A DNA stretch of 64,000 nt, taken from IMG/VR virus record IMGVR_UViG_3300047160_018490, positions 13,903-77,902 of that record. One strand, given 5' to 3'. Under the pieces are notes generated by a model. That model worked only from the letters and a program-made list of their open reading frames with translations, was not told the origin of the DNA and searched no databases. This document shows, piece by piece, positions 18,734 through 45,200 of this stretch. Numbering within the stretch: position 1 is the first letter of the stretch; each line of letters starts with the position of its first letter. The DNA is from a virus (lineage: Duplodnaviria > Caudoviricetes). The translations under genes and the position numbers were made by a program.

Positions 18734-19434
18734 TAGACTCCTACCCTTTCAGCGTGGGGCGCCTCATTGGCATGGTAGAGGACGCAGTGCTCACCCATGA
18801 GAGGAGACCATGCTCTCTCACAGTAGTGCGCTTCCTCAGGATGAGGGTGGTCCGCGAGGTCCTCCAGCAGCCCTTCATAGAGGGAGCGGGGGCGCCTCTT
18901 AATCATCTCTCTGGAGGCAGCGAAGCAGGCGCCTGGGGCGTAGCGGATCTCCCAGGCGTCTCTCAGCTCAATGCCCAACTTCTCCCGGAACCATGCCAGG
19001 AAGGACAGCCCTGCCGGCCGCATGTCCTTGGGATAGCTATAGACTCTATTGATGTTGGGCCAATTAAGATACCCAGAGGGGAGCCACTCTCTGCAATGCG
19101 TGAACCCAGGAAAGAAGGGGATGCAGGAGGGCTGGAGGAGTCCCTTCACGATGGAGAGGCCGAGCATGTGCGGGAAGGGGTCACCCTGCAAGAAACCAGT
19201 CCAGTCTGCGAGGGTGTCCCACCTGGAGAGGAGGTGGATGAGATAGGTGTGAGCTTCTCTACCCACGTTAGGGAGGGTGATGACCCGTGCGCGAGTGTCC
19301 ACAGCGAGAGGAGAGGGCCCCTTGTTGTAGACTGTGACCTCAAACATCCTTCCGAAGCGGATGCTATCTTCGTAGACATCCGTAACCCACGAGAGGTCCT
19401 CTTCATACCTGGCCACTACCAGCTCGATGCTCAC
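18733..19434 (-). CDS. DUF3431-like protein
   Basis: ELVVARYEEDLSWV...YNKG...LPNVGREAHTYLIHL...FLQGDPFPH. Probable GTG start at 19434 (GTGA overlap with the upstream stop). Confidence 0.8.
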   Translation of the reverse strand: MSIELVVARYEEDLSWVTDVYEDSIRFGRMFEVTVYNKGPSPLAVDTRARVITLPNVGREAHTYLIHLLSRWDTLADWTGFLQGDPFPHMLGLSIVKGLLQPSCIPFFPGFTHCREWLPSGYLNWPNINRVYSYPKDMRPAGLSFLAWFREKLGIELRDAWEIRYAPGACFAASREMIKRRPRSLYEGLLEDLADHPHPEEAHYCERAWSPLMGEHCVLYHANEAPHAERVGV

Positions 19435-20998: not shown

Positions 20999-21017
20999 AA
21001 AAGGGAGCAATCTCCCT
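20999..21017 (-). terminator. short intrinsic terminator after the second capsid gene
   Basis: Minus strand AGGGAG-ATTG-CTCCCT followed by TTT; overlaps the stop codon. Confidence 0.45.
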
Positions 21018-22170
21018 ACTTGAGGATGATGTAGGGACTCACCATAGTGGTTCCATCCTGTAAGGTTATGGCAGATTGAACCTGGGGCTTGCCATCTGCC
21101 CGCAACCAGACCCTGAAGTCGGTCTGGTTTGTCTTGAAGGCTGGTCCCAGAGTGTCTGCATCAATGAGGACTTCCTGCCTCATACCGACTACGTAAAGCC
21201 AGGGATCGAAGAAGATCAGGTCACCAAGAGAGCCCAGGGTGGACAACTTCTCTGTGATGAAGACCGGCCTGGTGAGGAGGCTCCCCACCTGGCCGCCCTC
21301 ATCGTTGGCCTCCACGTTCAGGAAGAAGTTGGCCACCTGGATGAGCTGGGCAACACACGCAGGGGAAGAGGCCCAGATGGCGTTCTTCCAGGAGAAAGGC
21401 AACATCGCCGCTGCCATGTTGGCGATATCTACCTGGAGGATCTGGCTTGGTGTGTGCCTGGATACTGTCTTGGCTGCGGGGGCGTTGATGATCCCCAGAG
21501 GCATCTGGTTGGAGGTGCCTGTGCCCTGGAGGAAGGCATATTCCAGATACCACGCTGCCGCCATCCCGAAGAGCTTCAGGAGGTGATCCTCGCCCTCCGT
21601 GTTAGCGTCCTCCAACCAGTCATTAGAGACCGTGGCGTAGCCCAGAAGGTCCCACGCTGTGAGGGGGTCACTCCTGAACTTGGGCTCTGTTTCGGAGGGG
21701 GCTTGCGAGGTGCCCCACTTGAAGATGAGCCCACCGAAGAAGGGAGAGGTGGCTGCCGACTGGGCCGTCTCGGCATCCACCTTTGGACACTCAGTGGTGA
21801 GGGAGCGCATGGGGATCACATGCGCTCGCGGGTAAATGAAGCTGTTCTCGCTGATGGCCTGGAGGAGCTGGTTGGTAAAGTCCGTAGGCACCAGGTAGCC
21901 ACCAACGGCACCCGAGGTCTCTCCCATCGCCGCCTTCTGCACCTGGCCGGGAAGGACACGGAAGGGGCTCCGATAGTGCTTCTGGAGGATGTCTTCTCCA
22001 GCCATTCGGGTGGGTTCAGAGAAGGGGTCCCTGGCAGCCCTTACAGCCTTCAGGAAGCCTGTGAAGGACCTCCGGTGGGGAACCTCCAGAGGGGGAGCGC
22101 CAACCGGGCCACCCCCACGAACCAGGGGGGGACGCATGTTTGGCTTCATTGGCAGTGTCGATACGGCCAT
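21016..22170 (-). CDS. second HK97-fold major capsid paralogue
   Basis: KAAMGETSGAVGGYLVPTDF..., GTGTSNQMPLGIINAP, LLTRPVFITEKL..GDLIFFD...RADGKP; colinear with the 517 aa capsid protein. Confidence 0.9.
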   Translation of the reverse strand: MAVSTLPMKPNMRPPLVRGGGPVGAPPLEVPHRRSFTGFLKAVRAARDPFSEPTRMAGEDILQKHYRSPFRVLPGQVQKAAMGETSGAVGGYLVPTDFTNQLLQAISENSFIYPRAHVIPMRSLTTECPKVDAETAQSAATSPFFGGLIFKWGTSQAPSETEPKFRSDPLTAWDLLGYATVSNDWLEDANTEGEDHLLKLFGMAAAWYLEYAFLQGTGTSNQMPLGIINAPAAKTVSRHTPSQILQVDIANMAAAMLPFSWKNAIWASSPACVAQLIQVANFFLNVEANDEGGQVGSLLTRPVFITEKLSTLGSLGDLIFFDPWLYVVGMRQEVLIDADTLGPAFKTNQTDFRVWLRADGKPQVQSAITLQDGTTMVSPYIILK

Positions 22171-22475: not shown

Positions 22476-24029
22476 TCAGTTTAGCACAACAAACGGCGAG
22501 ATCGTCCATCCCGCCTGGTCCGTGATGGCGTTGTTCAGCCAGGGCTTGCCATCGCACCGGGCGATGACCCGCCACGCCAACTGGTTGTTGCGGAAGAGGT
22601 AATGCGGGCTGACATCAATCTGCATGTCCAACCGCATGCCGATGACGTAGCGGCTCCAATCCACCAGCATCACGTCGCCCTTGGTTCCAAGCTGCGGCAG
22701 CTTCTCGGTGAAGAAGACTGGCAAGCCGTTCAAGAAGGCGTTGGGGAGCTTGGAGGCAGCGGGGCCCCTGTCCGTGGTCATCGTGGGATTGACCCACACG
22801 AGGCGGTTGCCGGCCGGGAAGGACGAGGATGGAGAGGCGGCGTTGCCCCAACCTCCATCGACCATCATCAGGAGCTGAGGCAGCACGCTCTGATGCATGA
22901 TCCAGGCGGCGTCATCCCAGGAGCGCACCTGGAGGTGGGCCAGCATGGTGGCCGCGTCCTGGTAGAGGAAGCGCGAGGACTGGAGGCGGCCCTGGGAGAT
23001 GGTGGCCGGGGCGTTGAGGATGCCCAGAGGCATCGAGGAGCCGGCTCCCTTCCCTTGCAGATAGGCAAACTCCTTGTACCAGGTAATCGCCTGGCCAAAC
23101 AACTGCGTCAAAAGGGCGTCCAGCCCGATGCCGTTGTCTGCCAGGAGCTGGTTGCTGGAGACGCTGTAGAGGACCAGGTCCCACGCGGTCCAGACACTCT
23201 GCTTGAAGGCTGGCTCCGTCTCGTTGATGGTGGCCGCTTCAGGCTGCCACTGGGCCAGGATGCCGCCGAAGTACGGAGAGGTGCCGCTGGCCTGGACAGT
23301 GGTGATGTCCAGCATCGGCCACTCAGCCGTGCGGGAATTCATTGGCACCACCTTGGCGCGGGGCTCGATGAAGCCATCCTCGGCCGCGATGGTAAGCAGC
23401 TCCTGCATGAACTGCGGGGGGATCAGGTATCCACCCGTCTGGCCGGAGCCTTCTGCGAGGGCTGTCTTGCGCCTCTCATTCAGGAGTACCTGCCCATTGC
23501 GATAGGTGGGCACCCCCACAGTGGCAGCCTTGGCAACGGTGACGAAGCCGTGCTGCCTCTCAAACTGCTCCATGCCGTAGTTTTCGCCAAACAGTCCCTG
23601 CGACTTGGCGATGGCCTGGGCATCCTTGTTGCCTGAGAGGGCTGCCATCGAGACCAGGGCCGGGCCGATGCCGGAGATGCGAGGTCTGCCACTCTTCCGC
23701 ATCCCGAACAGGTCCACTGCGGCAGGTGAGGTATAGGCCCCACCCAGGGCCTTCAACTGCTCCACCGGCCAATCGCGGTAGGAGGACTGCCGCCACCTCT
23801 CATAGGAGCGGTCGATGTCCCCGATGATGGCACCCGGAGATGGGCCAGCAGGGGTGCGAGCCATCTTCTCAACGGCTTTCTCGATCTGGTCGAGCCGCTG
23901 GAGGGCGAGAAGGTTGATGTCCGCAGGGGGACGAGGGGGCTGCTGGGGCTGGTAGCCAGGACCACCAGGAGGAGCGCCCGCAGGACGGCGCTGGGGCGGA
24001 GGAGGGGTACGAGTTGGGACGGTCGCCAT
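22476..24029 (-). CDS. HK97-family major capsid protein with an N-terminal delta/scaffold domain
   Basis: KTALAEGSGQTGGYLIPPQF, GKGAGSSMPLGILNAP, FLNGLPVFFTEKLP..GDVMLVDWSRY..RCDGKP; about 188 aa N-terminal extension. Confidence 0.92.
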   Translation of the reverse strand: MATVPTRTPPPPQRRPAGAPPGGPGYQPQQPPRPPADINLLALQRLDQIEKAVEKMARTPAGPSPGAIIGDIDRSYERWRQSSYRDWPVEQLKALGGAYTSPAAVDLFGMRKSGRPRISGIGPALVSMAALSGNKDAQAIAKSQGLFGENYGMEQFERQHGFVTVAKAATVGVPTYRNGQVLLNERRKTALAEGSGQTGGYLIPPQFMQELLTIAAEDGFIEPRAKVVPMNSRTAEWPMLDITTVQASGTSPYFGGILAQWQPEAATINETEPAFKQSVWTAWDLVLYSVSSNQLLADNGIGLDALLTQLFGQAITWYKEFAYLQGKGAGSSMPLGILNAPATISQGRLQSSRFLYQDAATMLAHLQVRSWDDAAWIMHQSVLPQLLMMVDGGWGNAASPSSSFPAGNRLVWVNPTMTTDRGPAASKLPNAFLNGLPVFFTEKLPQLGTKGDVMLVDWSRYVIGMRLDMQIDVSPHYLFRNNQLAWRVIARCDGKPWLNNAITDQAGWTISPFVVLN

Positions 24030-24446: not shown

Positions 24447-24893
24447 CTAGACCTCCGAGGGAATGCCAGGACCATCTCCTGAGTGAGCGTCCTCCCGAAG
24501 AGGAGGCTTCTTCACTGCGGCCTTCTCCAGATTGTGAGGATGCCTGGGGTGATCCAGGAAGCGGTTACTGGCGAAGGTGCCTTTCACCAGGTCCTCGATG
24601 CCCTGGGCGCTCATCTCTCCTTCCCTCCTGGCCACCGGCCTGCCATCAACGAAGACCATGATGGTGGGAAGGGCGTGGACGTTGTACTGCGAGGCCACGC
24701 TCTCCTGCGCGTCGGTATCCAGCCTGGCAAAGTGCGCCCTCTCCTTCATGGACTCGGCCGCCTCCTTGAAGGCAGGCTCCAGGTTCTTGCAATGAGGACA
24801 CCATTCCGCGAAAAAGTCCACCACGCAGCAGGGGGGCTCCTTGACTGCTTGCTGGAAGCTGGCGGAGTCCAGTTCTTTGACCAGGTCACTCAT
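24447..24893 (-). CDS. thioredoxin-fold protein with a WCPHC active site
   Basis: VVDFFAEWCPHCKNLEP...FARLDTD...YNVHALPTIMVFVDG. Thioredoxin fold, but the active-site dipeptide is not the canonical GP, so no symbol is given. Confidence 0.92.
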   Translation of the reverse strand: MSDLVKELDSASFQQAVKEPPCCVVDFFAEWCPHCKNLEPAFKEAAESMKERAHFARLDTDAQESVASQYNVHALPTIMVFVDGRPVARREGEMSAQGIEDLVKGTFASNRFLDHPRHPHNLEKAAVKKPPLREDAHSGDGPGIPSEV

Positions 24894-31134: not shown

Positions 31135-33075
31135 TCAGGCTCTTCCCCCTGTGACTTGCATGATCTTCCTCCCCAGGGCCTGGATACGGGCGAGGACTTC
31201 AGGGGCGATCCTTCCCTTCACGGGGCGCCTCCGAGGAAGTGCTCTCCTTCCTGTACCCTTGCAGATGCGGCAGCCAGCTCCCTTGCAGGTGGCGCACTTG
31301 TCCATCTCGCCATCCCCTTCTTCCATGTCCTTCACCTCCTCAGCGAGGTTGGCAGGAGAGGGGCGCCTCTCCCTGGGGTTCATGAGGCCACCAGAGGGCC
31401 ACCCAGGGATGACATCCTTCAGCTCCTCGGGGTTGCCCTCATCTTGCAAGTTTACCCCCGCGCCCATCCCCTGGCGGAGAGCAGCCTCTCCTGGGTCTTC
31501 CAGGTTCTCGCCAGCGCCCATGCCTTGCCTCAGGAGGGCCTCTCCCGGGTTCTGGAGGTGCTCTACCTCCTTCAGCTCATCCGGGTTGCCTTCGTCCTCC
31601 AGGTGGGCTCCTGCACCCATTCCCTGCCTCAGGGCGGCCTCTCCTGGATCGGGGAGGTTCACGCCTGCCCCCTCTCCCTGGCGAAGGGCGGCCTCACCAG
31701 GGTCTTGCAGATGGGCATCCTGCCGGTCTTCGAGGTCCTTGGGGCGCCCTCTGGCTGGAGCGCCACGAGGGGGGGTCTGCCGCATGGGGACTCCTGGGCC
31801 CTTCTGCCTGATGAGGTAGGGCCGCCCATCCTTTCCCCAGCGAATCCTGTGCTTGAGGATGAACCATTGCAGCGTCTTGGGGTTCTGGTAGCGCTCCAGG
31901 ATCTCGTCATCGTCCTCGCTGCCAGGGGCTTCTCCAGCTCCACCTCCTGCGCCACCACCAGGAGGCTGATGCCCTTCCAGAGCTTCCTCTTCAGGAGTCT
32001 CCTCCCCTGCGAAAGGCTGGGCGTCACCGTGACCTCCCTCTCCCTGGTTGGTATCGAGGTCGCTGCTTCCAGGGGGCGCTGCACTTCCCTGTCCTTCAGG
32101 AGTATCTCTTCCTCTCTCCAGCTCCTCGATGGCTGCTCTCTCGATGGCCTCCAGCTCGGCCATCTGCTGCGGGTCCAGGTTACCTGCACCTGCCGCTCCC
32201 TGATCTTCTCCGCCCTGCACCACGCCATCCTGCTCACCAGGAGGAATTTCTGGCTGCCTCCCCGAGATGCCGAGGTCACCAGGAGGGATCTCTCCCTCCT
32301 CCACGCTGCCTTCTTCCCCTGGGTGGGCCTCATGGCCACCCTTCTCAGGATCGACCTCCAGGGCCTTGGAATACTTGCGCGTGTACCCCTTCTTGGCCTC
32401 TCCTCCAGGGGCGCCGATGCCGTGATGTTCAGAGAGGAGATTGCGCAGATGCTGCATGATGCCAGGGAGCTTGTCTACCCCCAGCTTCTGAAGCTCCTGA
32501 GCGATCTTGGGGTGATCCATCATCGGCAGGATATCCCGGATGTAGTCCACTCCTGTACCCAGGTGGTCGTGCAGGTCTCTGAGGACTCGCGCACTCTGCT
32601 TTACAGGAGTGGAGTCCCCTTTTCCTCCCTGAGAGGGGGTTCCTCCCCGGGGGGAAGGAGGGGTAGAAGGAGCAGGGCCCTTGATCTCATCTGGGGAGCC
32701 TACAGCCTTACCGCGGGTTCTGGTGGTCATCTGCTTGCCCTCTCTTACATTCCGGCCGAAGTGCATCAGTTCATGAGGCTCTGCGGTTGTCTCGTCACCC
32801 CACTCATCCCAGGAGCTGCGACGGCGGTTGTAGTGCGTCCTTATCTTGATACCACCTTCATGGGGCGGAACGCTATAGACTTCTCCGTACTCACCCCTGT
32901 AAGGGTGGTTTGTACCATAGCGGATATAGACTACATCTTCAGGGTTAAATTCTTGCCCCCCTGCTTCCTCTTCCTCCGGCTGCTTCTCCTGCTCGGGAGG
33001 CCACCTCTCCTCAGGGACCAGGTAACCTCCTGCGGCTCCTGAACTTTCATTGAGGGCCATCTTATTCTTCTCCAT
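31135..33075 (-). CDS. acidic, low-complexity scaffold/core-like head protein
   Basis: Start at ATG 33075 (MEKNK) or 33060 (MALNE). Begins with ALNESSGAAGGYLVP, and has DPGEAALRQG repeats, CxxCxGxGCxxCxGxG and a C-terminal amphipathic helix. Confidence 0.75.
   Translation of the reverse strand: MEKNKMALNESSGAAGGYLVPEERWPPEQEKQPEEEEAGGQEFNPEDVVYIRYGTNHPYRGEYGEVYSVPPHEGGIKIRTHYNRRRSSWDEWGDETTAEPHELMHFGRNVREGKQMTTRTRGKAVGSPDEIKGPAPSTPPSPRGGTPSQGGKGDSTPVKQSARVLRDLHDHLGTGVDYIRDILPMMDHPKIAQELQKLGVDKLPGIMQHLRNLLSEHHGIGAPGGEAKKGYTRKYSKALEVDPEKGGHEAHPGEEGSVEEGEIPPGDLGISGRQPEIPPGEQDGVVQGGEDQGAAGAGNLDPQQMAELEAIERAAIEELERGRDTPEGQGSAAPPGSSDLDTNQGEGGHGDAQPFAGEETPEEEALEGHQPPGGGAGGGAGEAPGSEDDDEILERYQNPKTLQWFILKHRIRWGKDGRPYLIRQKGPGVPMRQTPPRGAPARGRPKDLEDRQDAHLQDPGEAALRQGEGAGVNLPDPGEAALRQGMGAGAHLEDEGNPDELKEVEHLQNPGEALLRQGMGAGENLEDPGEAALRQGMGAGVNLQDEGNPEELKDVIPGWPSGGLMNPRERRPSPANLAEEVKDMEEGDGEMDKCATCKGAGCRICKGTGRRALPRRRPVKGRIAPEVLARIQALGRKIMQVTGGRA
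31411..31722 (-). repeat. intragenic repeat (A-A-B)x2
   Basis: A = (D/N)PGEA(A/L)LRQG(M/E)GAG, four copies; B = DEGNP(D/E)ELK, two copies. Confidence 0.85.
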
Positions 33076-36000
33076 AAAGATACCCATGAGGCAGGTGCTC
33101 ATAGAATGCAGCAATACTAGTCCTTGCCTCCTGGGTCAACTCATGCCAGGGGCGAGGGTAATTAGGATGGTTGGGGTCCTGAATGGGGTGGGCAGCCCTC
33201 GCGTTCTCCCAGCGAGTCATGGGATCTGGCTCGGCGTCGTTATGATATTCCTCTTCTGGCTGCTTCTCTACATCCCCTTCTAGAGCGTTCTCCTCCTCCT
33301 CTCCTCCCTCACCGAAAAGGGCGCCATGAGGTAGATGAGAGTAGAGGTCTGCTATGTGCCCTCTCTCACCTTGAGGCATCCTGTCCCAGGCAGCTCCGGG
33401 ACCAATCTCTGGGTAATGCTCGGCCAGGTACTCACTGGCTCTTCCATACCTCTCCGAGGGGTCGTTGTAGGGAGTCTCCGCGGGGAGGTGTTCTTCCTCC
33501 TCTTCTCCCTCTGCCTTCTCCCACTCCTCCCAGTAGGGATCTACCTTCTCCCCGGGGGAAGAGGAAGGAGGATGTTCCCACTCCTCCCAGTAGGGCTCGG
33601 AAGTAGGAGGCTTGGGGTTTCTGGCGTCATGCTCCCACGCCTCGTAGTAGGGATCGTGGGCGGCCTTCTCCTCCTCTTCTGGCTCTACCGTATGTTCAGA
33701 AGGATGAGGCCCTGGGTCGCCTACCATCTGGAAATACTGGCGGTTGGATTGTCTCTCTCCCTGAGACAAACCTTCCCAGGGAGTAAGAGGATGTTGAGGA
33801 TGCTGCTCTTCCCAGTAGCGCCTGTGAGACTCCCACCTCTCTTCAGGAGACCTGGGAGGGGGGTTAGAAGACTGCTTCTCCTCGTCTTCCACTCCCTCGT
33901 AGTATTCCTCACGCTCAAACGGCCCTGGGGTATGCTCCTCCCATTCGGGGTATTCCTCGTCCTCTGAGGCTTCAGAATGGTGCCTGGGGGTTGGTAGAGG
34001 GTGTCTGCAGCCTTCATGGTATCCCTGAGACATCTCGCTCCAGGTGGGGCGCACATGGACCCCTGGATTCAGCGCCTCCCGGTCTATGTCATGACGCCTG
34101 TGAGTTTCCCATACCTCATCCGGGGTGATACTGGCTTTTCCCTCCTCCAGAAATCTCTCATGCTCGCCTGGTTGATATTCCTCCCACTCAGGATACTCCA
34201 GGTGAGAGGGGTGTTCGGAGTGGTGGGCGGGTTCTGGATGAAAACCAGTCTCCGGGCTAACCCCTTGCAGGACATCTCTACCAGTTTGGGAAATTTCCTC
34301 CCAGGGCTCGCGGGGGCCGAAGTAGCCTATAGGATGGCGTCTTCGGAAGGATTCATACCAGTCATCGAGAGAACGGGGTGCCTTCTCCTCCTCAAAGTCC
34401 GAGACTACAGTAGCCTCCGCCCTGTGAGGACCCTCGTCCTCCTCGTGCGCGTACCTTGTAGCCTGACGGTCGCGGGTAGACTGCGAGAGTCCTTCCCAGG
34501 GCCTACCCTCTGACCCAGTCCTTCCATACCTCTCCTGGCTCTGATGGCGGGAGGTCTGGTAGCGCTCATCAGGAGTGCGGGGAGCTTTCTCTTCCTCTTC
34601 AGGGTATGCCCACTCAGGAGGCTCATTCTCTCCCAGAGGGCTTCCCCTCTCCCCTTCTCCTTCTTCCTCTTCTGGGGGGGTGTCCTCATCGTAGGGGTCC
34701 ACGTAGCCAGTATGCTGTCTCAGTCCAGCGTAATAGTCCCGCAAGTTTTGGTTGAGGTCACGCCAGTGGAGGCCGGTGGTTCCCCTTCTCCTGGCAGATT
34801 CCCACGCCTCGTCATGGGATCGGGGAGCTTTCTCTTCCTCAAGTGGCTCCCACTCAGGGTACTCCTGAATTTCGCTTTGCTCTGAGGGGTGGAAGCCAGG
34901 GTCCCTTACCATACCAGGCACGAGATCCCTCTGACCCTGGGTGAGATTCTCCCATTTTCTACCGCTGCCACTGCCTCTATCCTCTCTATATCTCCTCTCA
35001 GACTCCCACACCTCATCAGGAGCACGGCGGAAGGGCTGGCCTTCTTCCTTCCTCCTCTCCAGCCTCGCCTTCAGCCTCCTGTATTGCGGAGCTACCTTCT
35101 CCCCGATACCAGGTATCTGCTCGTTGATGCCAGGGCGAATATGAGCGGGAGGGCGAAGAGGAGCATCCTCTGCCTCGTTGATGGTCCTACCACGATTAAG
35201 CTCATCAGCATGTGCCTGAGCCTCCGCAAGAGTGTCGTGGTCCCCAGCGGAGCCAAAGAAGTAGGGGTGTTCCGGGTCAAATGTCCCCTCGGGGCCGAAG
35301 TGGGGGTGGAACTCGGTGGGGTAGACTCCATATCTCCCTGGCTGCTCGTGGTGTGGGCGAGCTTCATAGTAGGGGGCGCCTGGGTTGGCTGTAATGGCAG
35401 GATTCCCCTCTGGCTGCTTCTGTACCCCCTTCTCTGCGTCCAGCCTCCTGTAGCCAGCAGAGTGGGCCAGTTGGTAGTGCATGTCCCCAATCCAGTCATT
35501 GGCCTCATCAATGTTTTGGGCAACGAAGACGGGATCATGGGTCATCCCTGCTGGGTGCTGGGGAGAGCGGTGGACATCAAAGGTGCCTGGCTCATCCTCT
35601 CTCTCTACCATGTGATACCAGGTCGCCGGCCTGCCTGTGCGGAGGTCGTGGATGGCCTTCCCCTCGATGCCAGGGAGCTGCTCATTCCTCGCCGGTCTGT
35701 TCTGGACCCCTCTTCCACGCCTGGCCCTCGCAGTCCCTGTCATCGTGGCCCACATTCCCTCCTGGAGCCTCCGGGCATGGGCATGGGCCTCCTCGGCAGT
35801 CTGATGCGGTGGGAGCGGGTTCTGCGGGTTTTCTATGTTACGGCGAAGAGGATGGTGCTCGGAGGGGGTGACAGCATGAGCCCCTTCCTCAGTGGGCTCA
35901 ACATCCCAGTAAGGGTGCCCAGGGTTGGCCGTTACTACCGCGCCCTGCTCCTCCTCTCCTTCCACCTTGGGGGCCTTTTCCACCCCTTCTTCCAGAGCGT

Positions 36001-39000
36001 TTTCCTCTTCTTCAGGGGGTAAATGGAGATCGGGGTCCTCGTACATGCTTTCGTAATTACGCGCAATACCACCAGCATACTCTTCCGTCATGGGGCCAGT
36101 AACTGGGCCTTCTCCGTGGGAATGAAACGCTGGGTGTTCCCGCGTTCGATAGACGCTGTAGCGCCCTGGGCGAACTGGTGATAGCCTGGTCTCGTAGAAC
36201 CTGAGTTCTCCTGTCTTGGGGTCCGCCTTCTCTTCCACCCCCTCCAGACCCTTGTTGGGCTTCTCCCCTGCCTCCTCCAGCGAGGAGTAGCACACGCGAT
36301 GGGCTTTCCCCGCGTCTGCACCCTCTGCTTCCAGATCAGCGATGCAGCGCTCCATCCTCTCCGTGTGGTAGTGGTGGGGGTGCTCCACGTTGGGCTTCCG
36401 GATCTCTTCCCCTTCGAGGTCTTTCTCTTCCTCTGCTGGGTTGAGAGGAGTGCAGTTAGGAGAGAGGTGCGCCATCCGGTTGATGGACTCCTGGGCCCGC
36501 TGGTTCTGCCTCTCTGCCTCCTCTTCTGCCTCTGCCTGCGTGCAGTGGAGAGACCACCCCACTCCTGTACGGCGGGATGCTACCTGGTAAAGCTCCGGCT
36601 GCTCCTCGCTGGGGCGGACGTAGAAGTGTCCTGGGCTCTCTTCTCCTCCTTCTGCCTTCTCCCGGGGAATAGGAGATACCCTGTTCTCGTAGGGGTGGTT
36701 GAGGTCAGGGTTGTGACCCACCAGGAAGCGGTACGCAACACCTTGGACGCGCTTCCCTGTCTTGGGATCTACTGCTTTCTCCTCCTTACCCTGATCCCAC
36801 GCCTGGAAATACTGCTCGCCAGTCCAATGCCCTCTACCAGGATTGTCTGTATAGCGGTCAGCATGGGCATTCAACTCATCCGCTCGCTGCTGGGCTTCTT
36901 CGAGTTCATATCGGCCCACGTCGCGGTTTCCATCTGGATCGACAAGGGAGTGCGTGCCATCCTCATTGGGCACAACCCTCCAGTGGAGTGATTGCTTCCT
37001 TCTCTGCAAGCGGTCCCACAGCCTCTTGCACTTCTTCTCCGCGATGGTGCCACTCTCATCCTCTGGCACCTCCGTCTGATCTCCCCACTTCTCGAACTCC
37101 CTGACCTTCTCTGCTTCTGCCTCCGCCTCCGCCTGCGTCTGGTGAGAAGAGGTAAACCACACCTCCCCGTTGGCCCGTGTGTGCCGCACCAGGTAGGGAT
37201 ACACCGTCCTCCCTGGGCGGTAGATGACATCTACCTTCTTCTCCACTTCCAGTTCAGGAGTGTCCCCAGTTTCGATGTCCGAGCCCTCTCCAGGGTTAGT
37301 CTCGGGAGGGATGCCTGTTCTATCAATCTCTCCAGGAGTGCCCCTTCCTGCTTCCATGTCGGCCTGGTTGGCGTCCTTCTCAGAGGGGTGAGGTGTCTCG
37401 TCTACTACTCCCATACTCCCGTGCCGCCAATTCAATTGGCTTGTGCAGTACCTTACCTCCTCTGGGGTGGCAGCGTAGTAGACATGCCTACCAGTGCGGG
37501 CATGAACGATCTCATAAGGGAGGTGCTCTATACCCGTTCTCCTGGCCTCGTAGAGGGGCTCGTCCTGGCCTGTAAGGGGGTCTTCTGTACTGTCCTTCTC
37601 TTCAGGAGCAGGGAGGTTGACTCTCGGGTTATCGGGCCCTTGCAGCTCGCCACTCATGATCCTCTGGTGGGCAGCCTCCTGGTAATCGCGGGCCATATCC
37701 TCCGCTTCCCAGTGGGGGTGGAGGTGAGATGCCAGGCGCCCTCTACCGCCCTCTGGATGAGATCCAGTCCTATATAGAGCGTCGAAGTCCTCAATGCTGG
37801 GATGCTCCCGCAGTTCATAGAAGGGCTCCATCTTCTCCCCCGTCTTGGGGTCCAGGGCCTTCTCCTCCCTCTCCGGCTCCATCTGGTACCGCGGTGGCGT
37901 GCCTTCGGTATCCCGGACCCACTGGCGGTTTTCCTCTGCATGCCTGTCCTGCATTGCCAGCTCGTCCAGGGAGTTCTCGGCAAACTGCTCTACCTGCCTG
38001 TGGGCCTCTTCAGGAGTACGGAACCCCCCTGTGCGCAATCCAGCCTGTCCTAGAGGGTGCTGCTCCGTGCGGACGATCTGGTAGGCGCCAGGGATGTGTG
38101 GGTCCTCCTCCACGCGCCACCAGGGATGATTCTGCTTCTTCATCTCCTTGTTAGGCGCCCAGATCGTCTCCAGCAGGTTCTCCTCCGCAATGTGAGCAAT
38201 CGTCTCCGCCTCGTGCTGCGTCCTGTAGCCAGTCAGGCTTCTCGCATCCCTGCCCTCGGGGTGGAACATGGTAGGGATGACATCGAAGGTCCCTGGGTTC
38301 TCCTCGCTCTCCTGGACGTGGTAGAAGGACTTTTCCACTGCTCCTGAGAGAGCATTCTCCTCCTCTGCAGGGATGTTGGCCGCCTCCGTCCTCTGCTGGC
38401 TTACCAGATTGGCGTAGTGCCTCCTGGTGGCTTCCTGCTGCCTGGCGTGCTGAGTGGCCCATCTCGCTCCGGCGGCGGCCTCCTCATGAGATGTGTAGCC
38501 ACCAAAGCCTGAGTAGCGCCCTGCCCTGCCATGAGGATGGTGCTCCGAGTAGTGAAGGTCATACCTCTCAGGGTCGTCCTCGTTCTGCTGCACCGTGAAC
38601 CAGGGAGGAGAGGTGTCTTTACTCACACTACCTCCTGCAACCTTCTGGCTCTCTTCCCAGGTAGCCTGATCCATACGGGACTGGACGGTGTCCTCGTGCA
38701 TATCTCTGGCAAGTTCCCTGGCCTCTTCCGGAGTGAGGTGTCTGTGCGGTACTCGGTCTGAGGGATATTGGTGGATATTGGGGTGGTCAGGGGTCCGAAA
38801 GATCCGTGGGCGCCCGTTTTCGTCCCTGACTCCGTAGTAGGGCTTATCGTGGAAGCCCTTCTCCTCCTCATTCCTTCTGTGGATGTCCTCTGTCCTCAGA
38901 GAGACATTCTCTGCGAGCTGTGCCTGGATGCGGTCTATGACTTCCTGGGCCTCCTGAGTGGAGGTGTAAGGGCCACCACCCCAGATGGGCTTGCCCTGAT

Positions 39001-42000
39001 GGTCTCTGCCACCCAAGGGGTGCTCGTCCGTCCTCCAGATGTCATGGGTGCCTGGTACGTTGGGGCGCTCCACAATCTTGTACCAGGGCGGGCGGTCTTT
39101 TCTCACTCCTGAAGAGAGGGCATCCTCGTGGTGCTGTGGGGCATCCCACTGCTCGGGGTCTTCATTTCTAGACCATTCCAGTTGCCGTAACCCGGCTTCG
39201 GCACTGGCTTCCTCCCTGGAGTCACGGGTTGTGAGGGGGTAAGACATCAGTCCAGGAGTGGCGTAGGGATGGTGCTCACTCCTGTAGACTCCCCATCTCC
39301 CTTCAGGGGTCTGGCGGACGTGGAAGTAGCGGTATCCTTTCTCCACTCCTTCGGAGAGGGCATGTGTAACAGGAAGACCATGTCCATGACCGAGGTCATC
39401 CGTTCTTACCTTCTCCAGGTCCTGTGCGCCATCCAGGGCGTCTTCCTCGGTGTCATAGCGGGTGGGTCCCACGGGAATGGTTTGATCCCCAGACTGGAAG
39501 AAGGGATGAGACTCAGTGCGGAAGATTCCATAACCCTCCTGATAGGGCTTGACCTCGAAGAAACCCTTCTCCACTCCTGAAGAGAGAGCAGCCTGCAAGT
39601 ATTGAGGTGGGGGATGGTGTAGCGCCCTATCTTTGATACTCTCCGTTGTATCTTCCACCAGAGACTGAGCCTCTTCCCTGCTTCCCAGGAGGTAAGTGTT
39701 TACCCGCATTCCAGGTCTTCCCCAGGGATGGTGTGCAGTACGGTAAACACTCCAAAAAGTCGGGTGGTCCTCGTCTTCCCGTGCCTCGTACCACGGGCCT
39801 TGCTTCTCCACCCTCTCCTCTAACCCCCTTGCTATCCTTTCCCCCGGGGGAAGCATGGAGAATGGATGCTCTCTGGGGTTGCCTGTGCCTCTGGGGGCGT
39901 CATCATACTCCGGGCCCAAAGACTCCATGTGCCTGGCCCAGTCTCTGGCCTCTCCGTGATCCAGGAAGGAGAGATGAGAGTGCCTCACTCCTGAAGGGGA
40001 GACAACCTGGAAGTGACCCATATCCGGGTCATGCTCCACGCTCCACTTACCGGATGGTTTGTCTTCTATTGGAGGGACGTAGGGGGCGGTGGCGCCTGTG
40101 CTCTCTTCTTCCTTTCCTTTCTCCACACCTCCAGAGAGGGAGTTCTCCTCGACCTGGAGAGGGATGTCACTGATCCCTGGTTCTTCTTCACCGCGCCACA
40201 GGTCGTACTGTCTCTGCCCAGCAGCGATCCAGGCATCCTCGTGGCTGGCATGGGTGGAGAGAGGCGCCTCATCAGGCCCATGAGGGCCGTATGGGTGGCG
40301 CCCACTTCGGTAGACTCCATACCCTCCTTCTGGGGTTGGGAGGACCAGGTAGTGGCTGTAGTTCTTCTCCACCTCTTCTCCCTGATAGACGATGGAGCCG
40401 TATGTGCCCTCAGAAGGCTCCGTCTGGCCGCCGAGGGAGTTCTCCTCGATGTCCGGAACATTCACGCCCCTGTTTTTTCCCTCCTTGTACCAACCATCTA
40501 CTGCGTCCTGGAGTCTGTCTGCTCTCTCCTGCTGCTCTTCCAGAGTGTTGGGACGGAAGGGGGTTATTCCCTCTCCCATAGGATGGTGCTCAGTACGATA
40601 TAGCAGGTACAGCTTACCACCTGGGTTCTGTACAATCCGGTAGTAGGGCCTCTGGAGGGCTTTCTCCACTCCCTCCAGGGCGTCCTCCAGATCCATCCTC
40701 TCCATGAGGGTCCTGTGTGTCTGATCGTGCAGCCTCTGGGCTTCTTCCTCGGCAAGACCCTGGGTGGTATGGTCTGGAGACTCGGGAGAGGAGAGTCTTC
40801 CCTTGGGGTGGTAGGAAGACCTCCATACGTCGTAGTTCCCAGCCGGGCGCTGGTGGACCTCGTAGAAGTAGTGTGGGGATAGGTCCTTCTCCACACTGCC
40901 TTCCAGGGCATTCTCCTCATAGGCTGGAAGGCCCTGCCCCATGCCCAATCTCTCTGTCTGCATCCTCACCTCGCTAGCCGTTAGCTCGCGTGCCATGTCG
41001 TGGGCAGAACCCTCCTCAAGGCCTCCGATGATAACCATTCCTGCGTCACCACCTGGGTGGGTGGCAGAGCGGCGGACCTCGAACTGACCCTGGCGCCGGC
41101 CTTCGTGGACCTCATAGTAAGAAGGTGGTTCAGGAGTACCCTCATCTTTCTGCACACCTCCCTCCAGAGCGTGCTGCACAGGAGGGGTGTAGGGGAGGCC
41201 CTGACTCTGGCCTGCCCAGTCTGTCTCTATGCTACGAGAGCGTGCAAACCTTCTCGTCCTCTCCTGTGCGTCTGCCTCTGCCTGCTCTGGATCCTGGAAG
41301 TGGGTGATCCTGGCCTCTCCATAAGGGTGCTGGGAGGTACGCCACACCTCATGCCTCTCCCCTCTGGAGCGGACCTCGTAAAGGGGAGGAACTCCGGTGT
41401 CTTTCTCCACCCACCCAGAGAGGGAGTGCTGCACAAGGGGTGTAGGTGGTAGACCCTGCTCTCTTCCCAGTCTGGACGTGTCCATGTTCTGGTAGCGAGT
41501 GGCCCCCAGACGGTAAATATCACTTATAGTCCTGGCACGTTCGCCTGCCTCTTCCTGGGTTGAGTAAGGACCCATACCAAGGTCCTCCCCACGAGAGGGA
41601 GCGTAGGGGTGCTCCTGAGAGCGGCGAACACGCCATCCTTCTCCCTCCACCTCGTAGGGCTCATAGAACTGGGGGAGCTTCTCCAGGGCGGTGGCTACCT
41701 CCTCAGGAGTGGCACCAGCTTTCTCTATACTTCCTTCCAGGGAGTATTGCTGTATGTGAGGGGGTTGGTTGACTGGTAGACCCTGGTTTTGCCCCAGTTC
41801 GTCTGTCAGTCTCCGCTCCCACCTTCCTGCGTAGTGCCTGGCATCCTCTTCCAGGTGAAACCTGGCCAGGGGGGAGTCTCCGTGTTCGCCAACCATCGAG
41901 GTTGCATTCCAGGGGTGGTTTGCTGTCCGGAAGACGCCATAGCCGCCCGCATGCGGGCGGACCTCGTAGAAGGACTTTTCCACGCTGCCTTCCAGGGCGT

Positions 42001-42229
42001 TCTCCTCTGGAGCTGGTGTCCTCCGGTGGCCGCCTTGGTTCACGTTTGCCTTGTCCTCATCCTCGTAGCTCTCATCGAGCTGCCTGGCTGCTTCCCTTGC
42101 AGCATCCTGCCCCCAGCGTGCAGGAAAGACCATGCTCTCCCCCATATAATGCAGGGCCGTCCTCCAGACCTCCCAGCGCCCTGCTTCCTGGTTGTAACGA
42201 GGCTCATAGGTAGGAGATGCTTCACTCAT
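33062..42229 (-). CDS. giant 3055 aa modular repeat protein, putative internal-head polyprotein
   Basis: Single uninterrupted ORF. About 25 modules of YEVR..x..YGVYR(T/S)..HP...T.EEA...A and about 8 modules of P(D/E)E.W.....W..L.Q..R, joined by ..(A/S)LEG.VEK or EEEK linkers. Confidence 0.9.
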   Translation of the reverse strand: MSEASPTYEPRYNQEAGRWEVWRTALHYMGESMVFPARWGQDAAREAARQLDESYEDEDKANVNQGGHRRTPAPEENALEGSVEKSFYEVRPHAGGYGVFRTANHPWNATSMVGEHGDSPLARFHLEEDARHYAGRWERRLTDELGQNQGLPVNQPPHIQQYSLEGSIEKAGATPEEVATALEKLPQFYEPYEVEGEGWRVRRSQEHPYAPSRGEDLGMGPYSTQEEAGERARTISDIYRLGATRYQNMDTSRLGREQGLPPTPLVQHSLSGWVEKDTGVPPLYEVRSRGERHEVWRTSQHPYGEARITHFQDPEQAEADAQERTRRFARSRSIETDWAGQSQGLPYTPPVQHALEGGVQKDEGTPEPPSYYEVHEGRRQGQFEVRRSATHPGGDAGMVIIGGLEEGSAHDMARELTASEVRMQTERLGMGQGLPAYEENALEGSVEKDLSPHYFYEVHQRPAGNYDVWRSSYHPKGRLSSPESPDHTTQGLAEEEAQRLHDQTHRTLMERMDLEDALEGVEKALQRPYYRIVQNPGGKLYLLYRTEHHPMGEGITPFRPNTLEEQQERADRLQDAVDGWYKEGKNRGVNVPDIEENSLGGQTEPSEGTYGSIVYQGEEVEKNYSHYLVLPTPEGGYGVYRSGRHPYGPHGPDEAPLSTHASHEDAWIAAGQRQYDLWRGEEEPGISDIPLQVEENSLSGGVEKGKEEESTGATAPYVPPIEDKPSGKWSVEHDPDMGHFQVVSPSGVRHSHLSFLDHGEARDWARHMESLGPEYDDAPRGTGNPREHPFSMLPPGERIARGLEERVEKQGPWYEAREDEDHPTFWSVYRTAHHPWGRPGMRVNTYLLGSREEAQSLVEDTTESIKDRALHHPPPQYLQAALSSGVEKGFFEVKPYQEGYGIFRTESHPFFQSGDQTIPVGPTRYDTEEDALDGAQDLEKVRTDDLGHGHGLPVTHALSEGVEKGYRYFHVRQTPEGRWGVYRSEHHPYATPGLMSYPLTTRDSREEASAEAGLRQLEWSRNEDPEQWDAPQHHEDALSSGVRKDRPPWYKIVERPNVPGTHDIWRTDEHPLGGRDHQGKPIWGGGPYTSTQEAQEVIDRIQAQLAENVSLRTEDIHRRNEEEKGFHDKPYYGVRDENGRPRIFRTPDHPNIHQYPSDRVPHRHLTPEEARELARDMHEDTVQSRMDQATWEESQKVAGGSVSKDTSPPWFTVQQNEDDPERYDLHYSEHHPHGRAGRYSGFGGYTSHEEAAAGARWATQHARQQEATRRHYANLVSQQRTEAANIPAEEENALSGAVEKSFYHVQESEENPGTFDVIPTMFHPEGRDARSLTGYRTQHEAETIAHIAEENLLETIWAPNKEMKKQNHPWWRVEEDPHIPGAYQIVRTEQHPLGQAGLRTGGFRTPEEAHRQVEQFAENSLDELAMQDRHAEENRQWVRDTEGTPPRYQMEPEREEKALDPKTGEKMEPFYELREHPSIEDFDALYRTGSHPEGGRGRLASHLHPHWEAEDMARDYQEAAHQRIMSGELQGPDNPRVNLPAPEEKDSTEDPLTGQDEPLYEARRTGIEHLPYEIVHARTGRHVYYAATPEEVRYCTSQLNWRHGSMGVVDETPHPSEKDANQADMEAGRGTPGEIDRTGIPPETNPGEGSDIETGDTPELEVEKKVDVIYRPGRTVYPYLVRHTRANGEVWFTSSHQTQAEAEAEAEKVREFEKWGDQTEVPEDESGTIAEKKCKRLWDRLQRRKQSLHWRVVPNEDGTHSLVDPDGNRDVGRYELEEAQQRADELNAHADRYTDNPGRGHWTGEQYFQAWDQGKEEKAVDPKTGKRVQGVAYRFLVGHNPDLNHPYENRVSPIPREKAEGGEESPGHFYVRPSEEQPELYQVASRRTGVGWSLHCTQAEAEEEAERQNQRAQESINRMAHLSPNCTPLNPAEEEKDLEGEEIRKPNVEHPHHYHTERMERCIADLEAEGADAGKAHRVCYSSLEEAGEKPNKGLEGVEEKADPKTGELRFYETRLSPVRPGRYSVYRTREHPAFHSHGEGPVTGPMTEEYAGGIARNYESMYEDPDLHLPPEEEENALEEGVEKAPKVEGEEEQGAVVTANPGHPYWDVEPTEEGAHAVTPSEHHPLRRNIENPQNPLPPHQTAEEAHAHARRLQEGMWATMTGTARARRGRGVQNRPARNEQLPGIEGKAIHDLRTGRPATWYHMVEREDEPGTFDVHRSPQHPAGMTHDPVFVAQNIDEANDWIGDMHYQLAHSAGYRRLDAEKGVQKQPEGNPAITANPGAPYYEARPHHEQPGRYGVYPTEFHPHFGPEGTFDPEHPYFFGSAGDHDTLAEAQAHADELNRGRTINEAEDAPLRPPAHIRPGINEQIPGIGEKVAPQYRRLKARLERRKEEGQPFRRAPDEVWESERRYREDRGSGSGRKWENLTQGQRDLVPGMVRDPGFHPSEQSEIQEYPEWEPLEEEKAPRSHDEAWESARRRGTTGLHWRDLNQNLRDYYAGLRQHTGYVDPYDEDTPPEEEEGEGERGSPLGENEPPEWAYPEEEEKAPRTPDERYQTSRHQSQERYGRTGSEGRPWEGLSQSTRDRQATRYAHEEDEGPHRAEATVVSDFEEEKAPRSLDDWYESFRRRHPIGYFGPREPWEEISQTGRDVLQGVSPETGFHPEPAHHSEHPSHLEYPEWEEYQPGEHERFLEEGKASITPDEVWETHRRHDIDREALNPGVHVRPTWSEMSQGYHEGCRHPLPTPRHHSEASEDEEYPEWEEHTPGPFEREEYYEGVEDEEKQSSNPPPRSPEERWESHRRYWEEQHPQHPLTPWEGLSQGERQSNRQYFQMVGDPGPHPSEHTVEPEEEEKAAHDPYYEAWEHDARNPKPPTSEPYWEEWEHPPSSSPGEKVDPYWEEWEKAEGEEEEEHLPAETPYNDPSERYGRASEYLAEHYPEIGPGAAWDRMPQGERGHIADLYSHLPHGALFGEGGEEEENALEGDVEKQPEEEYHNDAEPDPMTRWENARAAHPIQDPNHPNYPRPWHELTQEARTSIAAFYEHLPHGYLYGEE

Positions 42230-45200
42230 ACCCCTATCCTCCTTGCGAGGGCCTCGATGCGATGGAGGAGTTCAGGAGAGAAGGCTTTATCAGATGGCTT
42301 TGGGGTTTCTCTGTACTGCCGGTTGTGACGCTCCACCCAGTCCAGGAGCCCACCCAGGTGACTCGACTGTGACCACAAGGCTTCACCACTGGGCCTGTGG
42401 ATGATCTGGTAGAGGCCACTCAGGTGAGACTCCTCATGGGGACGCACCTCGTAAATGTCCTCTGGGTCCTCTACCCAGGTAATATCTTTGGGGTCCACCT
42501 TCTCTATGCTCTTCTCCTCCTCCACCTCTCTCTGAAGGCTCCTGATGGTTGCGCCTGGGCCCTGGGGGATTTCCTCTGCCCGCAGAGGTCTCCTTCTTGG
42601 GGCGCCTCCTCCTGCTTGCGGTAGAGGAGGAGGAAGAGAAGCAGGAGAAGGAGGTGGAGTCTTCTCTGGGGCGCGCCTATTCGTGTGCAGGAGGAGGTTA
42701 CTCGCTGCCTGGTTGTGCAAGTGGCTTACGTAGGAGTTGGCCCTATCCAGGGTGTCAGTCCTTACAGCCGGCTCATCACTGGCGCCCATAGGGTGATGTT
42801 CACTCCGGTGAATCCCGTACCCACCTTCTGGGTGGTCCCTTACCTCGTAGTAGGGCATCTCCGGTGGCCCTGGCTTCGATGCTGTGGACGGTTGTGGAGG
42901 CTCTTCTCCCTGACCCGCGCCCACGTCAAAGGGCGCGTCCTCAGGGTTCTGATGCACGAGCGCTGTGGGCTTGGCTGGACGGCGGGGTAGTGGTGGCGGT
43001 CCCTTCTGCAAGCTCTTCATGGTCTCTGCCTCTGTAGTGAGCTTGTTTGCCAGGGCCCTCTGGAGGCGGTCCCTGTTCTCTTCTGCTCTGTACCAGTCCG
43101 TCCACGCTCCTACGGGTGGGCCACCAGTAGGGGGTGCTCCTGAAGGGTGATTGGAGGTCCTGAAGACCCCGAAGCGGTCGTTCTCCGTGGGATGGGGGAG
43201 GACCTCATAGAGGGCGGGGAAGTCCTTCTGGATGGCCTTGTGGTACTCGGCGGTATCGGCTGTCTCATCAACGTAATTGGCATGGAGTCCCCTGGCAAAT
43301 CGGTGAGCCTCCTCTTCCGTTCCCGTATCTAGGATCGGATACCCCTCTCCAACACCGTAGGGGTGGCTTTCCGTGCGGTAGACACCAAACTTACCATTCT
43401 TCATAGGGCGGACCTCATAGTAGAGGGCCTTCCTGGCTGCCTTATGCTCTTCCTCCCGGACAGTGCGCAGGTTCATGTAACGGGCGTGCATTGCGCGGGC
43501 ATACTCTGCAGCCTGTGCCTCATGATCCGTCTGATAGACCGGCGCCTCTTCAGGACCCCAAGGGTGAGTGTCTGTACGATAAACTCCATACAGGGGAGGG
43601 TCATCATTGGTAGAGCGGACCTCGTAGATGAGTTTCTTCCTCACTCCCTTTTCAGGAGTAGACTCTCCTCCCTCCCATGCCCGCAGAGTGCCTGGGGCGT
43701 CCCAGTAGGCACAGCAATTCCTCTTGTTGACTGGCTGACCCTTGATGCGCTTCTCCTGGCAGATGCCGCCCTGGTTGTACTGGCAGTTACCGCAGTTGCT
43801 GCCCTCCACTCCTTCCCCGTAGGTGATGAAGTCCGCCGCCTGTAGAGCTTCAGAGGAGACCTGGGGAAGCTCGCCACCCTGGGTATCGAGGGCCTTCCTC
43901 GTTTCACTTGGAGAGCCTTCGGCGGACTTCCCGATCTCGTCAAGGATAGCGTGTGTATCTAGATAGCGAGCATGAAGACGCCTGGCTTCTGCGTAGGCTT
44001 CCTCCTCCGAGTGTGTTTCATAGATGGCATAAGGGTACTGCTGCTGCTGCGGGTGGCTTGGCGAGCGGTGGACTCTGTAAAGGGTAGAGCCCTCATCAGG
44101 AGGCCGCACCTCGTAGATGAGGGCCTTCTCCACCACATCCTTCTTGCAAGGGCATGCCTTCCCCCTGGAGCAATTCTTGCAGCCGCAGGAGCCCTTGAAA
44201 TGTTTTGGAATGCGGTGGAGGAACCCTGGATTGTTCTCTGAGTGCTCTCCTACAGGGTCCTCGCTCTCTTCAGGATGGGGAATAAGATCCTCTGGAGGGT
44301 CTATACCCTGAAGTGCTTCCCCAAACGTGGGAGACCTTGTGTCACCTTCCAGCCTGGCCAGTTCCCGAGAACGCCGAGCTATCCTAGCCTCCTCGGATGC
44401 AGAGGTATACTGAGGATCATATACCCAGTCTCTTGGGTGTCCGGACCCGAAAGCCCATTCCCTTTCATCTGTGGCAAAACCTTCTGGGGTGTATTCGTTA
44501 TGATGAGGTCCCACCCCTTCTGGCCTGTCTGCCTTTCTTAAACCTTTCTTGTCCTCTCCAGAAGTAGGAGGGTCCACATCACCTTCCAGCACCTCTCTCG
44601 CTTGCATCTCCCGAGAACGCTGATTGATGCGAGCCCTTTCACTAGCCATGCTGATTGGGGGAATATCGTGGCGCCATTCCTCTGGATTGGGGCCATAGGG
44701 AGGGTGCCAGTCCCAATCTTCCTCATGCTCACCAACAGTGCCCCATTCCGGGTCGTGCTCTGGCCTCCCTATCTCGTTGGGGTCTGGCTCAGGCTCAGAG
44801 GCCGCCTTCTCCTCGGGACCCTCTATCTTGTCCAGGTCCTCGGCCCTTCGGTTGATCCTCTCCATCTCCTCTTCAGGAGTACCCTTGGGATCACGCTGCC
44901 ACTGGTGAGAAGAGGACTCTCCGTAATCCCTGCTGGCCCGATCTGCGGTTGCCTGTGCCTGCTCCAGAGTAGTGCCAGGTGGCTGAGGTATGTCGTGTCC
45001 ATACTCAGTGTGTCTGATGTAGGTCCCGCCATTTGGGTACTGCCCCGCAGCCCAGCGCCCCTTCTGGAGGTCCTTCTCCTCCTCCTCGATGGGTCTCCCC
45101 TGCTCGTCTGTATCTTCCACAGCCCTCAGTGTCCCTGAGAGACGGTTTATCCTCTCCGTCTCTGCTTCATGAGTGGTGGGTGGTGCATTCCCCCCAATGA

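Follow-up and report, generated by a model that had tools for sequence, protein, structure and literature searches.

A capsid N-arm peptide at the start of a scaffold-like phage protein: a candidate processing signal of the head-maturation protease

Why should a protein that is not a capsid protein begin with a piece of one? The question is raised by a 641-aa scaffold-like protein encoded in a 64,000-nt stretch of phage DNA (hereafter the window), which is part of the 77.9-kb IMG/VR virus record IMGVR_UViG_3300047160_018490 and has its head genes on the minus strand. The first residues of this protein repeat a short peptide that is also found in two capsid proteins of the same phage. We propose that the peptide is probably a processing signal of the head-maturation protease, common to capsid protein A, capsid protein B and the scaffold, at which cleavage is predicted. 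The genes and peptide copies concerned are the following.

42226-48333, minus strand: 2035-aa protein, first open reading frame (ORF) of a split polyprotein, with prohead protease domain, AAA ATPase and repeats
33062-42229, minus strand: 3055-aa repeat protein, middle ORF of the split polyprotein
31135-33060 (33087 if the earliest ATG is used), minus strand: 641-aa scaffold-like protein, counted from ATG 33060
33013-33063, minus strand: motif copy K-MALNESSGAAGGYLVP, 17 residues, at the start of the scaffold-like protein (from the translation, a capsid-only hidden Markov model (HMM) and hhalign)
22476-24029, minus strand: capsid protein A, 517 aa, PF05065
23418-23468, minus strand: motif copy K188-TALAEGSGQTGGYLIP in capsid protein A (translation, HMM)
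21016-22170, minus strand: capsid protein B, 384 aa, PF05065
21886-21936, minus strand: motif copy K79-AAMGETSGAVGGYLVP in capsid protein B (translation, HMM)

The peptide shared by capsid and scaffold-like proteins

Using a motif HMM of 17 columns, built from 57 distinct capsid copies from related loci with the scaffold copies excluded to avoid circularity, we searched all 1172 six-frame ORFs of the window. With 36.5 and 33.6 bits the two capsid proteins came first, followed by the beginning of the scaffold-like ORF with 25.0 bits (E 8.4e-7); no further match exceeded 4.7 bits (E 2.1). The match between the scaffold and capsid peptides is far beyond chance, which confirms the original prediction that the motif is common to all three proteins. 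A weaker echo, RK-ALDTQGGELP, had also been claimed for the protease-bearing 2035-aa protein (near 43893), but neither motif model gave it a score, and it is not supported. The peptide proved to be a true copy of the segment that opens the conserved capsid domain, as had been supposed, since position 1 of PF05065 falls on the GGY of both capsid protein A and capsid protein B. Across 47 capsid sequences, Lys79 is at least 90% conserved and G87, G90, G91 and P95 are invariant.

At the DNA level, 36 of 57 bases are common to the three copies and the same codon is used at only about half of the identical residues. The likeness is therefore held at the peptide level and is not that of a recent DNA copy. 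Recent gene conversion was considered as well and is ruled out by the codon differences among the three copies.

A word-indexed protein search returned only two scaffold homologues, whether a single sequence or an alignment was used, probably because its candidate list was filled by low-complexity words, and a full HMMER scan of the trimmed scaffold core alignment against 1.84 billion representatives returned 108 proteins. The search with the capsid alignment yielded 28 viral and 80 metagenomic loci. No match came from scanning viral contigs with the scaffold-like protein or capsid B alone, from tblastn of the scaffold-like protein against GenBank phages or from a PDB sequence search with the capsids. 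The phage relatives of capsid B are distant, with at most 31% identity.

The long ORF upstream of the capsid genes in the two-capsid clade encodes a protease, in some members (L013, L007) an AAA domain, a linker, a Lys, the motif and a CxxCxGxG cluster, followed by a helical core, an acidic region, an EILERYRHPK box, G-rich repeats and a C-terminal helix. One example is P0005 (914 aa), one of the two homologues from the word-indexed search, which adjoins two capsid genes on their upstream side on the 21-kb contig L003 and carries KDK-SLSESSGTSGGYLVP mid-chain. Its N-terminal domain, which precedes this motif copy, is homologous to the first part of the 2035-aa protein. Of 10 related loci, 9 have the motif (the window, L003, L010, L004/L032, L006, L008, L012, L013 and L033), within the protein that is encoded upstream of both capsid genes or at the beginning of this protein. 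Motif and protease domain lie in one ORF at seven loci, two further copies being cut by the contig end. Protease and scaffold part share one reading frame in L003, L004, L006, L008, L010 and L013, and in L013 the protease, AAA domain, motif and scaffold are all contained in 1386 aa.

Among the nine scaffold copies, pairwise identity is 54% in the motif against 8-10% in the flanks (16-17 residues on each side). At least 400 aa upstream of the core are available for 55 of the 108 family representatives, which were used for the motif count. The capsid-only model found the motif in 41 of these 55, always 49-566 aa upstream of the scaffold core, and in 38 of the 41 a protease box precedes it within the same chain. 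The family consensus is K-[A/S]-L-[N/G]-E-[S/T]-S-G-x-A-G-G-Y-[T/A/L]-V-[P]. Thus the motif is conserved in homologues, the point on which the original prediction was to stand or fall.

Several other layouts were seen in the family. In the lineage of L007 (3735-7415) and L035 the polyprotein is divided between two ORFs, one with the protease and one with the AAA domain and scaffold. In P0034 (544 aa) and P0053 (604 aa) the scaffold gene looks separate, although these gene calls are possibly truncated; in both, the motif is preceded by a leader of 48-56 residues with Lys at its end, resembling a miniature delta domain. For P0006 (L112, a 2.7-kb contig) the upstream sequence is too short to judge a gene split. 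In compact polyproteins, a KOW/Tudor-like unit lies between the protease domain and the motif (L003 10300-10600; P0005 residues ~320-360), with a weak match to PF18337 (E 0.25), and a similar-looking stretch occurs in the window's scaffold-like protein (DVVYIRYGTNHPYRGEYGEVYSV).

A predicted cleavage site and the split polyprotein

Since the relatives' peptide is internal to a protease-scaffold polyprotein and stands just after a conserved Lys, a cleavage signal is indicated first. A copy of the capsid junction between a protease and a scaffold is what a release site would be expected to look like, and for this reason we read the peptide as a probable signal of the shared protease. A basic residue precedes the site in nearly all copies: Lys in 54 of 57 capsid copies, and in the scaffold copies Lys or Arg in 47 of 48, at position -10 or -11 relative to GG. 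The segment is also predicted to be flexible and exposed. The AlphaFold models give a predicted local distance difference test (pLDDT) score below 50 for K79-A81 of capsid B, followed by GGYL as a beta strand, and ~35 for the N-terminus of the scaffold-like protein.

Published maturation sites offer a direct comparison. HK97 is cut at K103/S104, which matches the junction of delta domain and N-arm, and L105-R130 are disordered in Prohead I (PMC10275583). The D3 prohead shows the same N-arm flexibility, which according to its authors 'might expose' the site to the protease (PMC12749128). The capsid protein (CP) of phi12 is cut between R128 and L129, and Ccm between K87 and Q88 (PMC8569155). Because these delta/N-arm cuts follow Lys or Arg in a segment that is disordered in the prohead, they support a cut at the capsid junction here.

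The protease in question is encoded together with the motif, in the window as a phrog_80 head maturation protease domain (~47635-48069, 5.7e-10) at the N-terminus of the 2035-aa protein, and in the relatives in the same chain as the motif. This domain is 45-57% identical to the protease domains of the relatives, in which the Pfam S78 match is only weak (E 0.04-0.09). The AAA ATPase of the 2035-aa protein belongs to PF00004.

In the mechanism that we propose, the relatives' chain consists of an HK97-type prohead protease, sometimes an AAA ATPase, a linker, the Lys, the 16-17-residue peptide, a zinc-finger cluster, an acidic, largely disordered scaffold and an amphipathic helix. The protease would cut after the conserved Lys and so free the scaffold part from itself, and it would make the same cut between delta domain and N-arm in each capsid protein. 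In the lineage of the window, the polyprotein would have been enlarged by ~4,500 repeat residues and broken into three translationally coupled ORFs. The third of these would start at ATG 33060, at the residue right after the Lys, and a start codon would thus have replaced the cut.

The gene layout of the window fits this description in several respects. Protease and scaffold do not share one frame here, but lie in three ORFs joined by ATGA and TAAGATG, with ~4,500 residues of small repeats that the relatives' polyprotein does not have. By homology, the 641-aa protein corresponds to the C-terminal part of the relatives' protease-scaffold polyproteins. Read from these sequences, the window contains a split derivative of a protease-scaffold polyprotein. 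At the first junction, the stop of the 2035-aa ORF overlaps the start of the 3055-aa ORF as ATGA (42229-42226). The second junction has the following features.

33076-33085, minus strand: GGG-TAT-CTTT in the frame of the 3055-aa protein, resembling the prfB +1 site; the next codon is TAT
33070-33073, minus strand: GGAG ribosome-binding site, 9 nt upstream of ATG 33060
33062-33064, minus strand: TAA stop of the 3055-aa ORF, one base (G) from ATG 33060 (TAAGATG, 33064-33058)

The scaffold-like protein most likely starts at ATG 33060, as M-ALNESSG..., because the GGAG box lies 9 nt upstream of this codon and the other in-frame ATGs, at 33075 (MEKNK) and 33087, are not preceded by a box of this type. 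A comparable GGAG stands 8 nt upstream of the start of the capsid A gene (MCP-A), and several other genes have GGAG- or AGGAG-type boxes. With this start, the Lys codon of the scaffold-like motif is upstream of the start codon. The initiator Met takes the position of the Gln in the 'KQAL' variants of L012, P0020, P0025 and P0041. An initiator Met is removed when the next residue is Ala. The Met-excised product, ALNESSGAAGGYLVP..., would then begin in the register of the cut products predicted for most relatives (e.g. SLSESSG...). A split exactly at the presumed cut is easily tolerated and therefore supports the reading of the peptide as a cut site.

The original prediction had described the overlap of the 3055-aa stop with MEKNK in the +1 frame, and this layout was found as described. 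It had also raised a read-through, in which a programmed +1 frameshift at CTT-T (33079-33076) would fuse the 3055-aa and the scaffold-like protein, so that the motif would be internal and the cut would follow the Lys. The +1 site of prfB consists of a Shine-Dalgarno-like element, a 3-nt spacer, CTTT and an in-frame stop that drives the shift (PMC12421855). GGG-TAT-CTTT has the CTTT and the 3-nt spacer, with GGG as a possible counterpart of the Shine-Dalgarno-like element, the +1 frame is open from 33135, and the product ...HGYL-MEKNK-MALNE... would retain the Lys before the motif. Moreover, the 3055-aa protein has no C-terminal helix of the kind carried by both the 2035-aa and the 641-aa protein. 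On the other hand, the codon after CTT is TAT and not a stop of the kind that drives the prfB shift, the stop of the 3055-aa ORF coming four codons further on, and the Shine-Dalgarno-like element is only GGG where prfB has AGGGGG. The bases encode G-Y-L-Y, similar to the HGALFGE of an earlier repeat, and coding may thus explain the sequence. In addition, an ordinary restart is available in the good GGAG box with TAAGATG, the other junction, between the first two ORFs, is a simple ATGA overlap, and the split is absent from close relatives. A fusion by frameshift is therefore improbable, and the simple TAAGATG restart, already judged the more economical by the original prediction, is the better reading of the junction.

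The lysines of the middle ORF have an unusual distribution. Lys makes up 2.6% of the 3055-aa protein against 8.4% for Arg, and about half of these lysines stand after a Glu, in ..(L)(E/S)G.VEK linkers that recur between small modules. From the sequence, this pattern fits post-Lys processing of the protein into many small head proteins.

The scaffold chain and a possible role of the freed arm

The original prediction held that the rest of the 641-aa protein is not capsid-like, and this is borne out. Pfam and PHROGs gave no family for it, and when a 10-sequence scaffold profile was aligned with a 47-sequence capsid profile (hhalign), only 18 columns, those of the motif, could be aligned (E 3.8e-5). 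AlphaFold with the 10-sequence alignment gave a pLDDT of 47, with 450 of 641 residues below 50 (~70% disordered). Four parts are ordered: residues 155-213 form a helical hairpin, 297-317 a helix, 386-418 a small sheet and 620-637 the C-terminal helix. The HK97 fold is absent from the model. Capsid B, used as a control, reached a pLDDT of 85.6 and a fold search with its model matched the GTA, T5 and HK97 capsids.

These results bear on the proposal that the peptide has no function of its own and is either what is left of a third capsid gene or a capsid gene fragment copied recently as DNA. It would account for the match of the peptide to the start of the conserved capsid domain. It is contradicted by the extent of the likeness, which covers 17-18 residues only, by the missing HK97 fold and by the different codons of the copies. 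The motif is also conserved in 48 diverged representatives with flanks that cannot be aligned, and has thus been under selection across dozens of diverged lineages. We consider a relic very improbable and reject this reading.

The label 'scaffold-like' is a fair one for a mostly disordered chain. The protein is encoded just upstream of the capsid genes, is helical or disordered and has a conserved C-terminal helix, in agreement with a putative scaffold function. The two copies of this helix in the window are:

31150-31203, minus strand: C-terminal amphipathic helix of the 641-aa protein (PEVLARIQALGRKIMQVT), residues 620-637, pLDDT ~90
42229-42294, minus strand: C-terminal helix of the 2035-aa protein (SPELLHRIEALARRIGV), which resembles the C-terminal helix of the 641-aa protein

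The ends of the 2035-aa and 641-aa proteins (SPELLHRIEALARRI and APEVLARIQALGRKI) are identical at 10 of 22 positions (E 4e-6). The helix was aligned in 7 of 9 relatives, L003 and L010 ending in a similar-looking LSPEDMERLK.L segment that MAFFT left unaligned, and in most aligned relatives it occurs once, at the end of the single polyprotein. Because the ends of the two window proteins are alike, the duplication fits separate proteins that each need a capsid-binding tail of their own. Capsid-binding tails are known from the scaffolds of P22 and 80alpha and from the HK97 protease. By analogy with these, we infer that the C-terminal helix, and not the N-terminal peptide, is the capsid-binding end of the 641-aa protein.

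Two further elements of the chain deserve mention. DnaJ-type CxxCxGxG zinc-finger repeats, a pair in the window (31249-31296, minus strand, CATCKGAGCRICKGTG), have moved near the C-terminus there, and stand directly after the place of the motif in the polyproteins of L004, L006, L007, L012, L013 and L033. Together with the J-domain protein and the thioredoxin of the same head module they suggest a chaperone-like chemistry in head assembly. In addition, the 641-aa protein contains five tandem DPGEAALRQGMGAGxNL(E/Q)D(E)GNP copies (31500-31800, minus strand, residues ~455-550), which are G-rich and the counterparts of the L(T/S)xxGKxQRxGGxGxxL repeats that the relatives have close to their C-terminus.

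Several observations weigh against a cleavage signal as the full account of the peptide. No recognisable motif was found in 14 of the 55 family members, and the L007/L035 lineage has lost it, with only KKSWGGL left at the matching place, so that to judge from these sequences the motif is dispensable in some lineages. The Lys is at -10 in most scaffolds but at -11 in the capsids. Conserved residues after the predicted cut number sixteen, and about 14 after the Lys (-9 to +4) are under shared constraint in the scaffolds; this is far longer than the stretch that proteases usually read, and cleavage alone may not explain the conservation. Finally, the window's copy stands at the head of a protein that is translated by itself, so that a cut is not required, and still no other scaffold copy is as close to the capsids (25 bits vs 10-19), which hints at a role for the freed arm itself.

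The last two observations are expected if the peptide is an N-arm mimic, that is, if its free N-terminus binds where the capsid N-arms bind, on a neighbouring subunit or on the arms' partner, and tethers scaffold or cargo to the shell. Such a mimic would be compatible with the reading as a cleavage site. It would suit the common register of the Met-excised product and the relatives' predicted cut products, and the GGYL strand in the capsid model is of a type that might extend a sheet in trans. Docking at the stage at which scaffolds act is weakened, however, because the N-arms of proheads are disordered and not docked: in HK97 and D3 proheads the first ~24 N-arm residues become ordered only on expansion, when the scaffolds are gone (PMC10275583, PMC12749128). 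The motif Pro, present in 57 of 57 capsid copies, was found in only 5 of 9 and 27 of 48 scaffold copies in two counts. Covariation of scaffold and capsid motif copies within the same genomes was looked for and none was seen, and the conserved C-terminal helix, duplicated on the 2035-aa protein, is the more conventional capsid-binding element. We therefore regard an N-arm mimic as rather unlikely.

The predicted cut and a function of the arm might also be combined in a module of two steps, which we put forward only tentatively. The peptide would first serve as a cut site and then act as a capsid N-arm in trans, at the arm-binding position, where it would tether the scaffold to the capsid interior and perhaps, in the phage of the window, also a partner of the giant repeat proteins. 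In this phage, whose gene starts at the predicted cut, the second step would be built in.

Setting in the head-gene block and comparison with known systems

The remaining members of the head-gene block are the following.

50981-53317, minus strand: portal
minus strand, between the portal and the J-domain gene: 423-aa protein
49070-49720, minus strand: J-domain protein
minus strand, between the scaffold-like gene and the capsid genes: several small ORFs and a thioredoxin (24447-24893)

Pfam gave no match for the scaffold-like protein, the 3055-aa protein and most of the small ORFs between them and the capsid genes. Immediately on the 3' side of the capsid genes (17072-20432, minus strand) follow genes for a GT75/RGP-like protein (PF03214, 1.4e-31), a DUF3431 protein and a methyltransferase-domain protein, which may serve the sugar modification of virion proteins. 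These genes prompted us to consider the motif as a glycosylation sequon; this was dropped, since by analogy with HK97-type shells the motif segment would lie on the inside.

Recognition by HK97-type prohead proteases is poorly defined, and the motif offers a long, sharply bounded candidate signal. It is found in three substrates of one phage and in dozens of diverged relatives and is directly testable. The lineage of the window, with a start codon in place of the predicted cut at the same residue, amounts to a natural experiment from which it may be learned whether the freed arm has any function of its own. Furthermore, the three giant ORFs of the window are now tied to a single protease-scaffold protein of the relatives, which aids the reading of an unusual 17-kb head-cargo region.

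The closest precedent is the site between delta domain and N-arm of HK97 gp5, which is cut by the gp4 prohead protease (MEROPS S78). As at K103/S104 of gp5, the N-arm is directly preceded by a conserved Lys and the segment around it is flexible; the two proteases belong to one type (phrog_80), and the capsid copies are homologous in position. In contrast to gp5, the junction sequence occurs here also in a non-capsid protein, between protease and scaffold, and cleavage is predicted.

Polyproteins of protease and scaffold with a release site are known from herpesvirus UL26 (R and M sites), lambda C/Nu3 and P2 gpO. The arrangement is alike in that the protease is N-terminal to the scaffold in one chain and the release site would be cut by the protease that also serves the other head substrates, at a site of the same kind as theirs. 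Unlike in these systems, the release site has 16-17 residues of the capsid N-arm on its P' side, some members add an AAA ATPase, and the chain of the window is split into three ORFs with one break at the site itself.

The scaffold and the capsid protein of the staphylococcal phage 80alpha have a common N-terminal leader that is cut by the host protease Prp. A host protease in the maturation of 80alpha has been mentioned in the literature (PMC8569155). In 80alpha as in the window, scaffold and capsid carry the same short cleavage motif near the N-terminus. Whereas the leader of 80alpha is removed, by a host enzyme, the common part would here be retained after the predicted cut and the protease is encoded by the phage.

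In T4 and giant phages, the prohead protease cuts head proteins at a common short motif, and both DarA and the capsid protein of P1 are cut by Pro (PMC12810830). As in these phages, several head proteins, internal ones included, would share the signal of one protease. Their signals comprise 3-4 residues before the cut, whereas the signal described here has ~17 residues that lie mainly after it.

The cargo-loading peptides of encapsulins stand at the C-terminus and have a defined pocket as their binding site. By analogy, the peptide described here is a short terminal peptide on a non-shell protein and could address an HK97-fold shell; it differs in having no sequence likeness to the encapsulin peptides, in being N-terminal and in that its binding is putative. 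Overall, head substrates with the signal of one protease and protease-scaffold polyproteins are of a known kind, and what is unusual is the long signal after the predicted cut, together with a gene that is split at the site.

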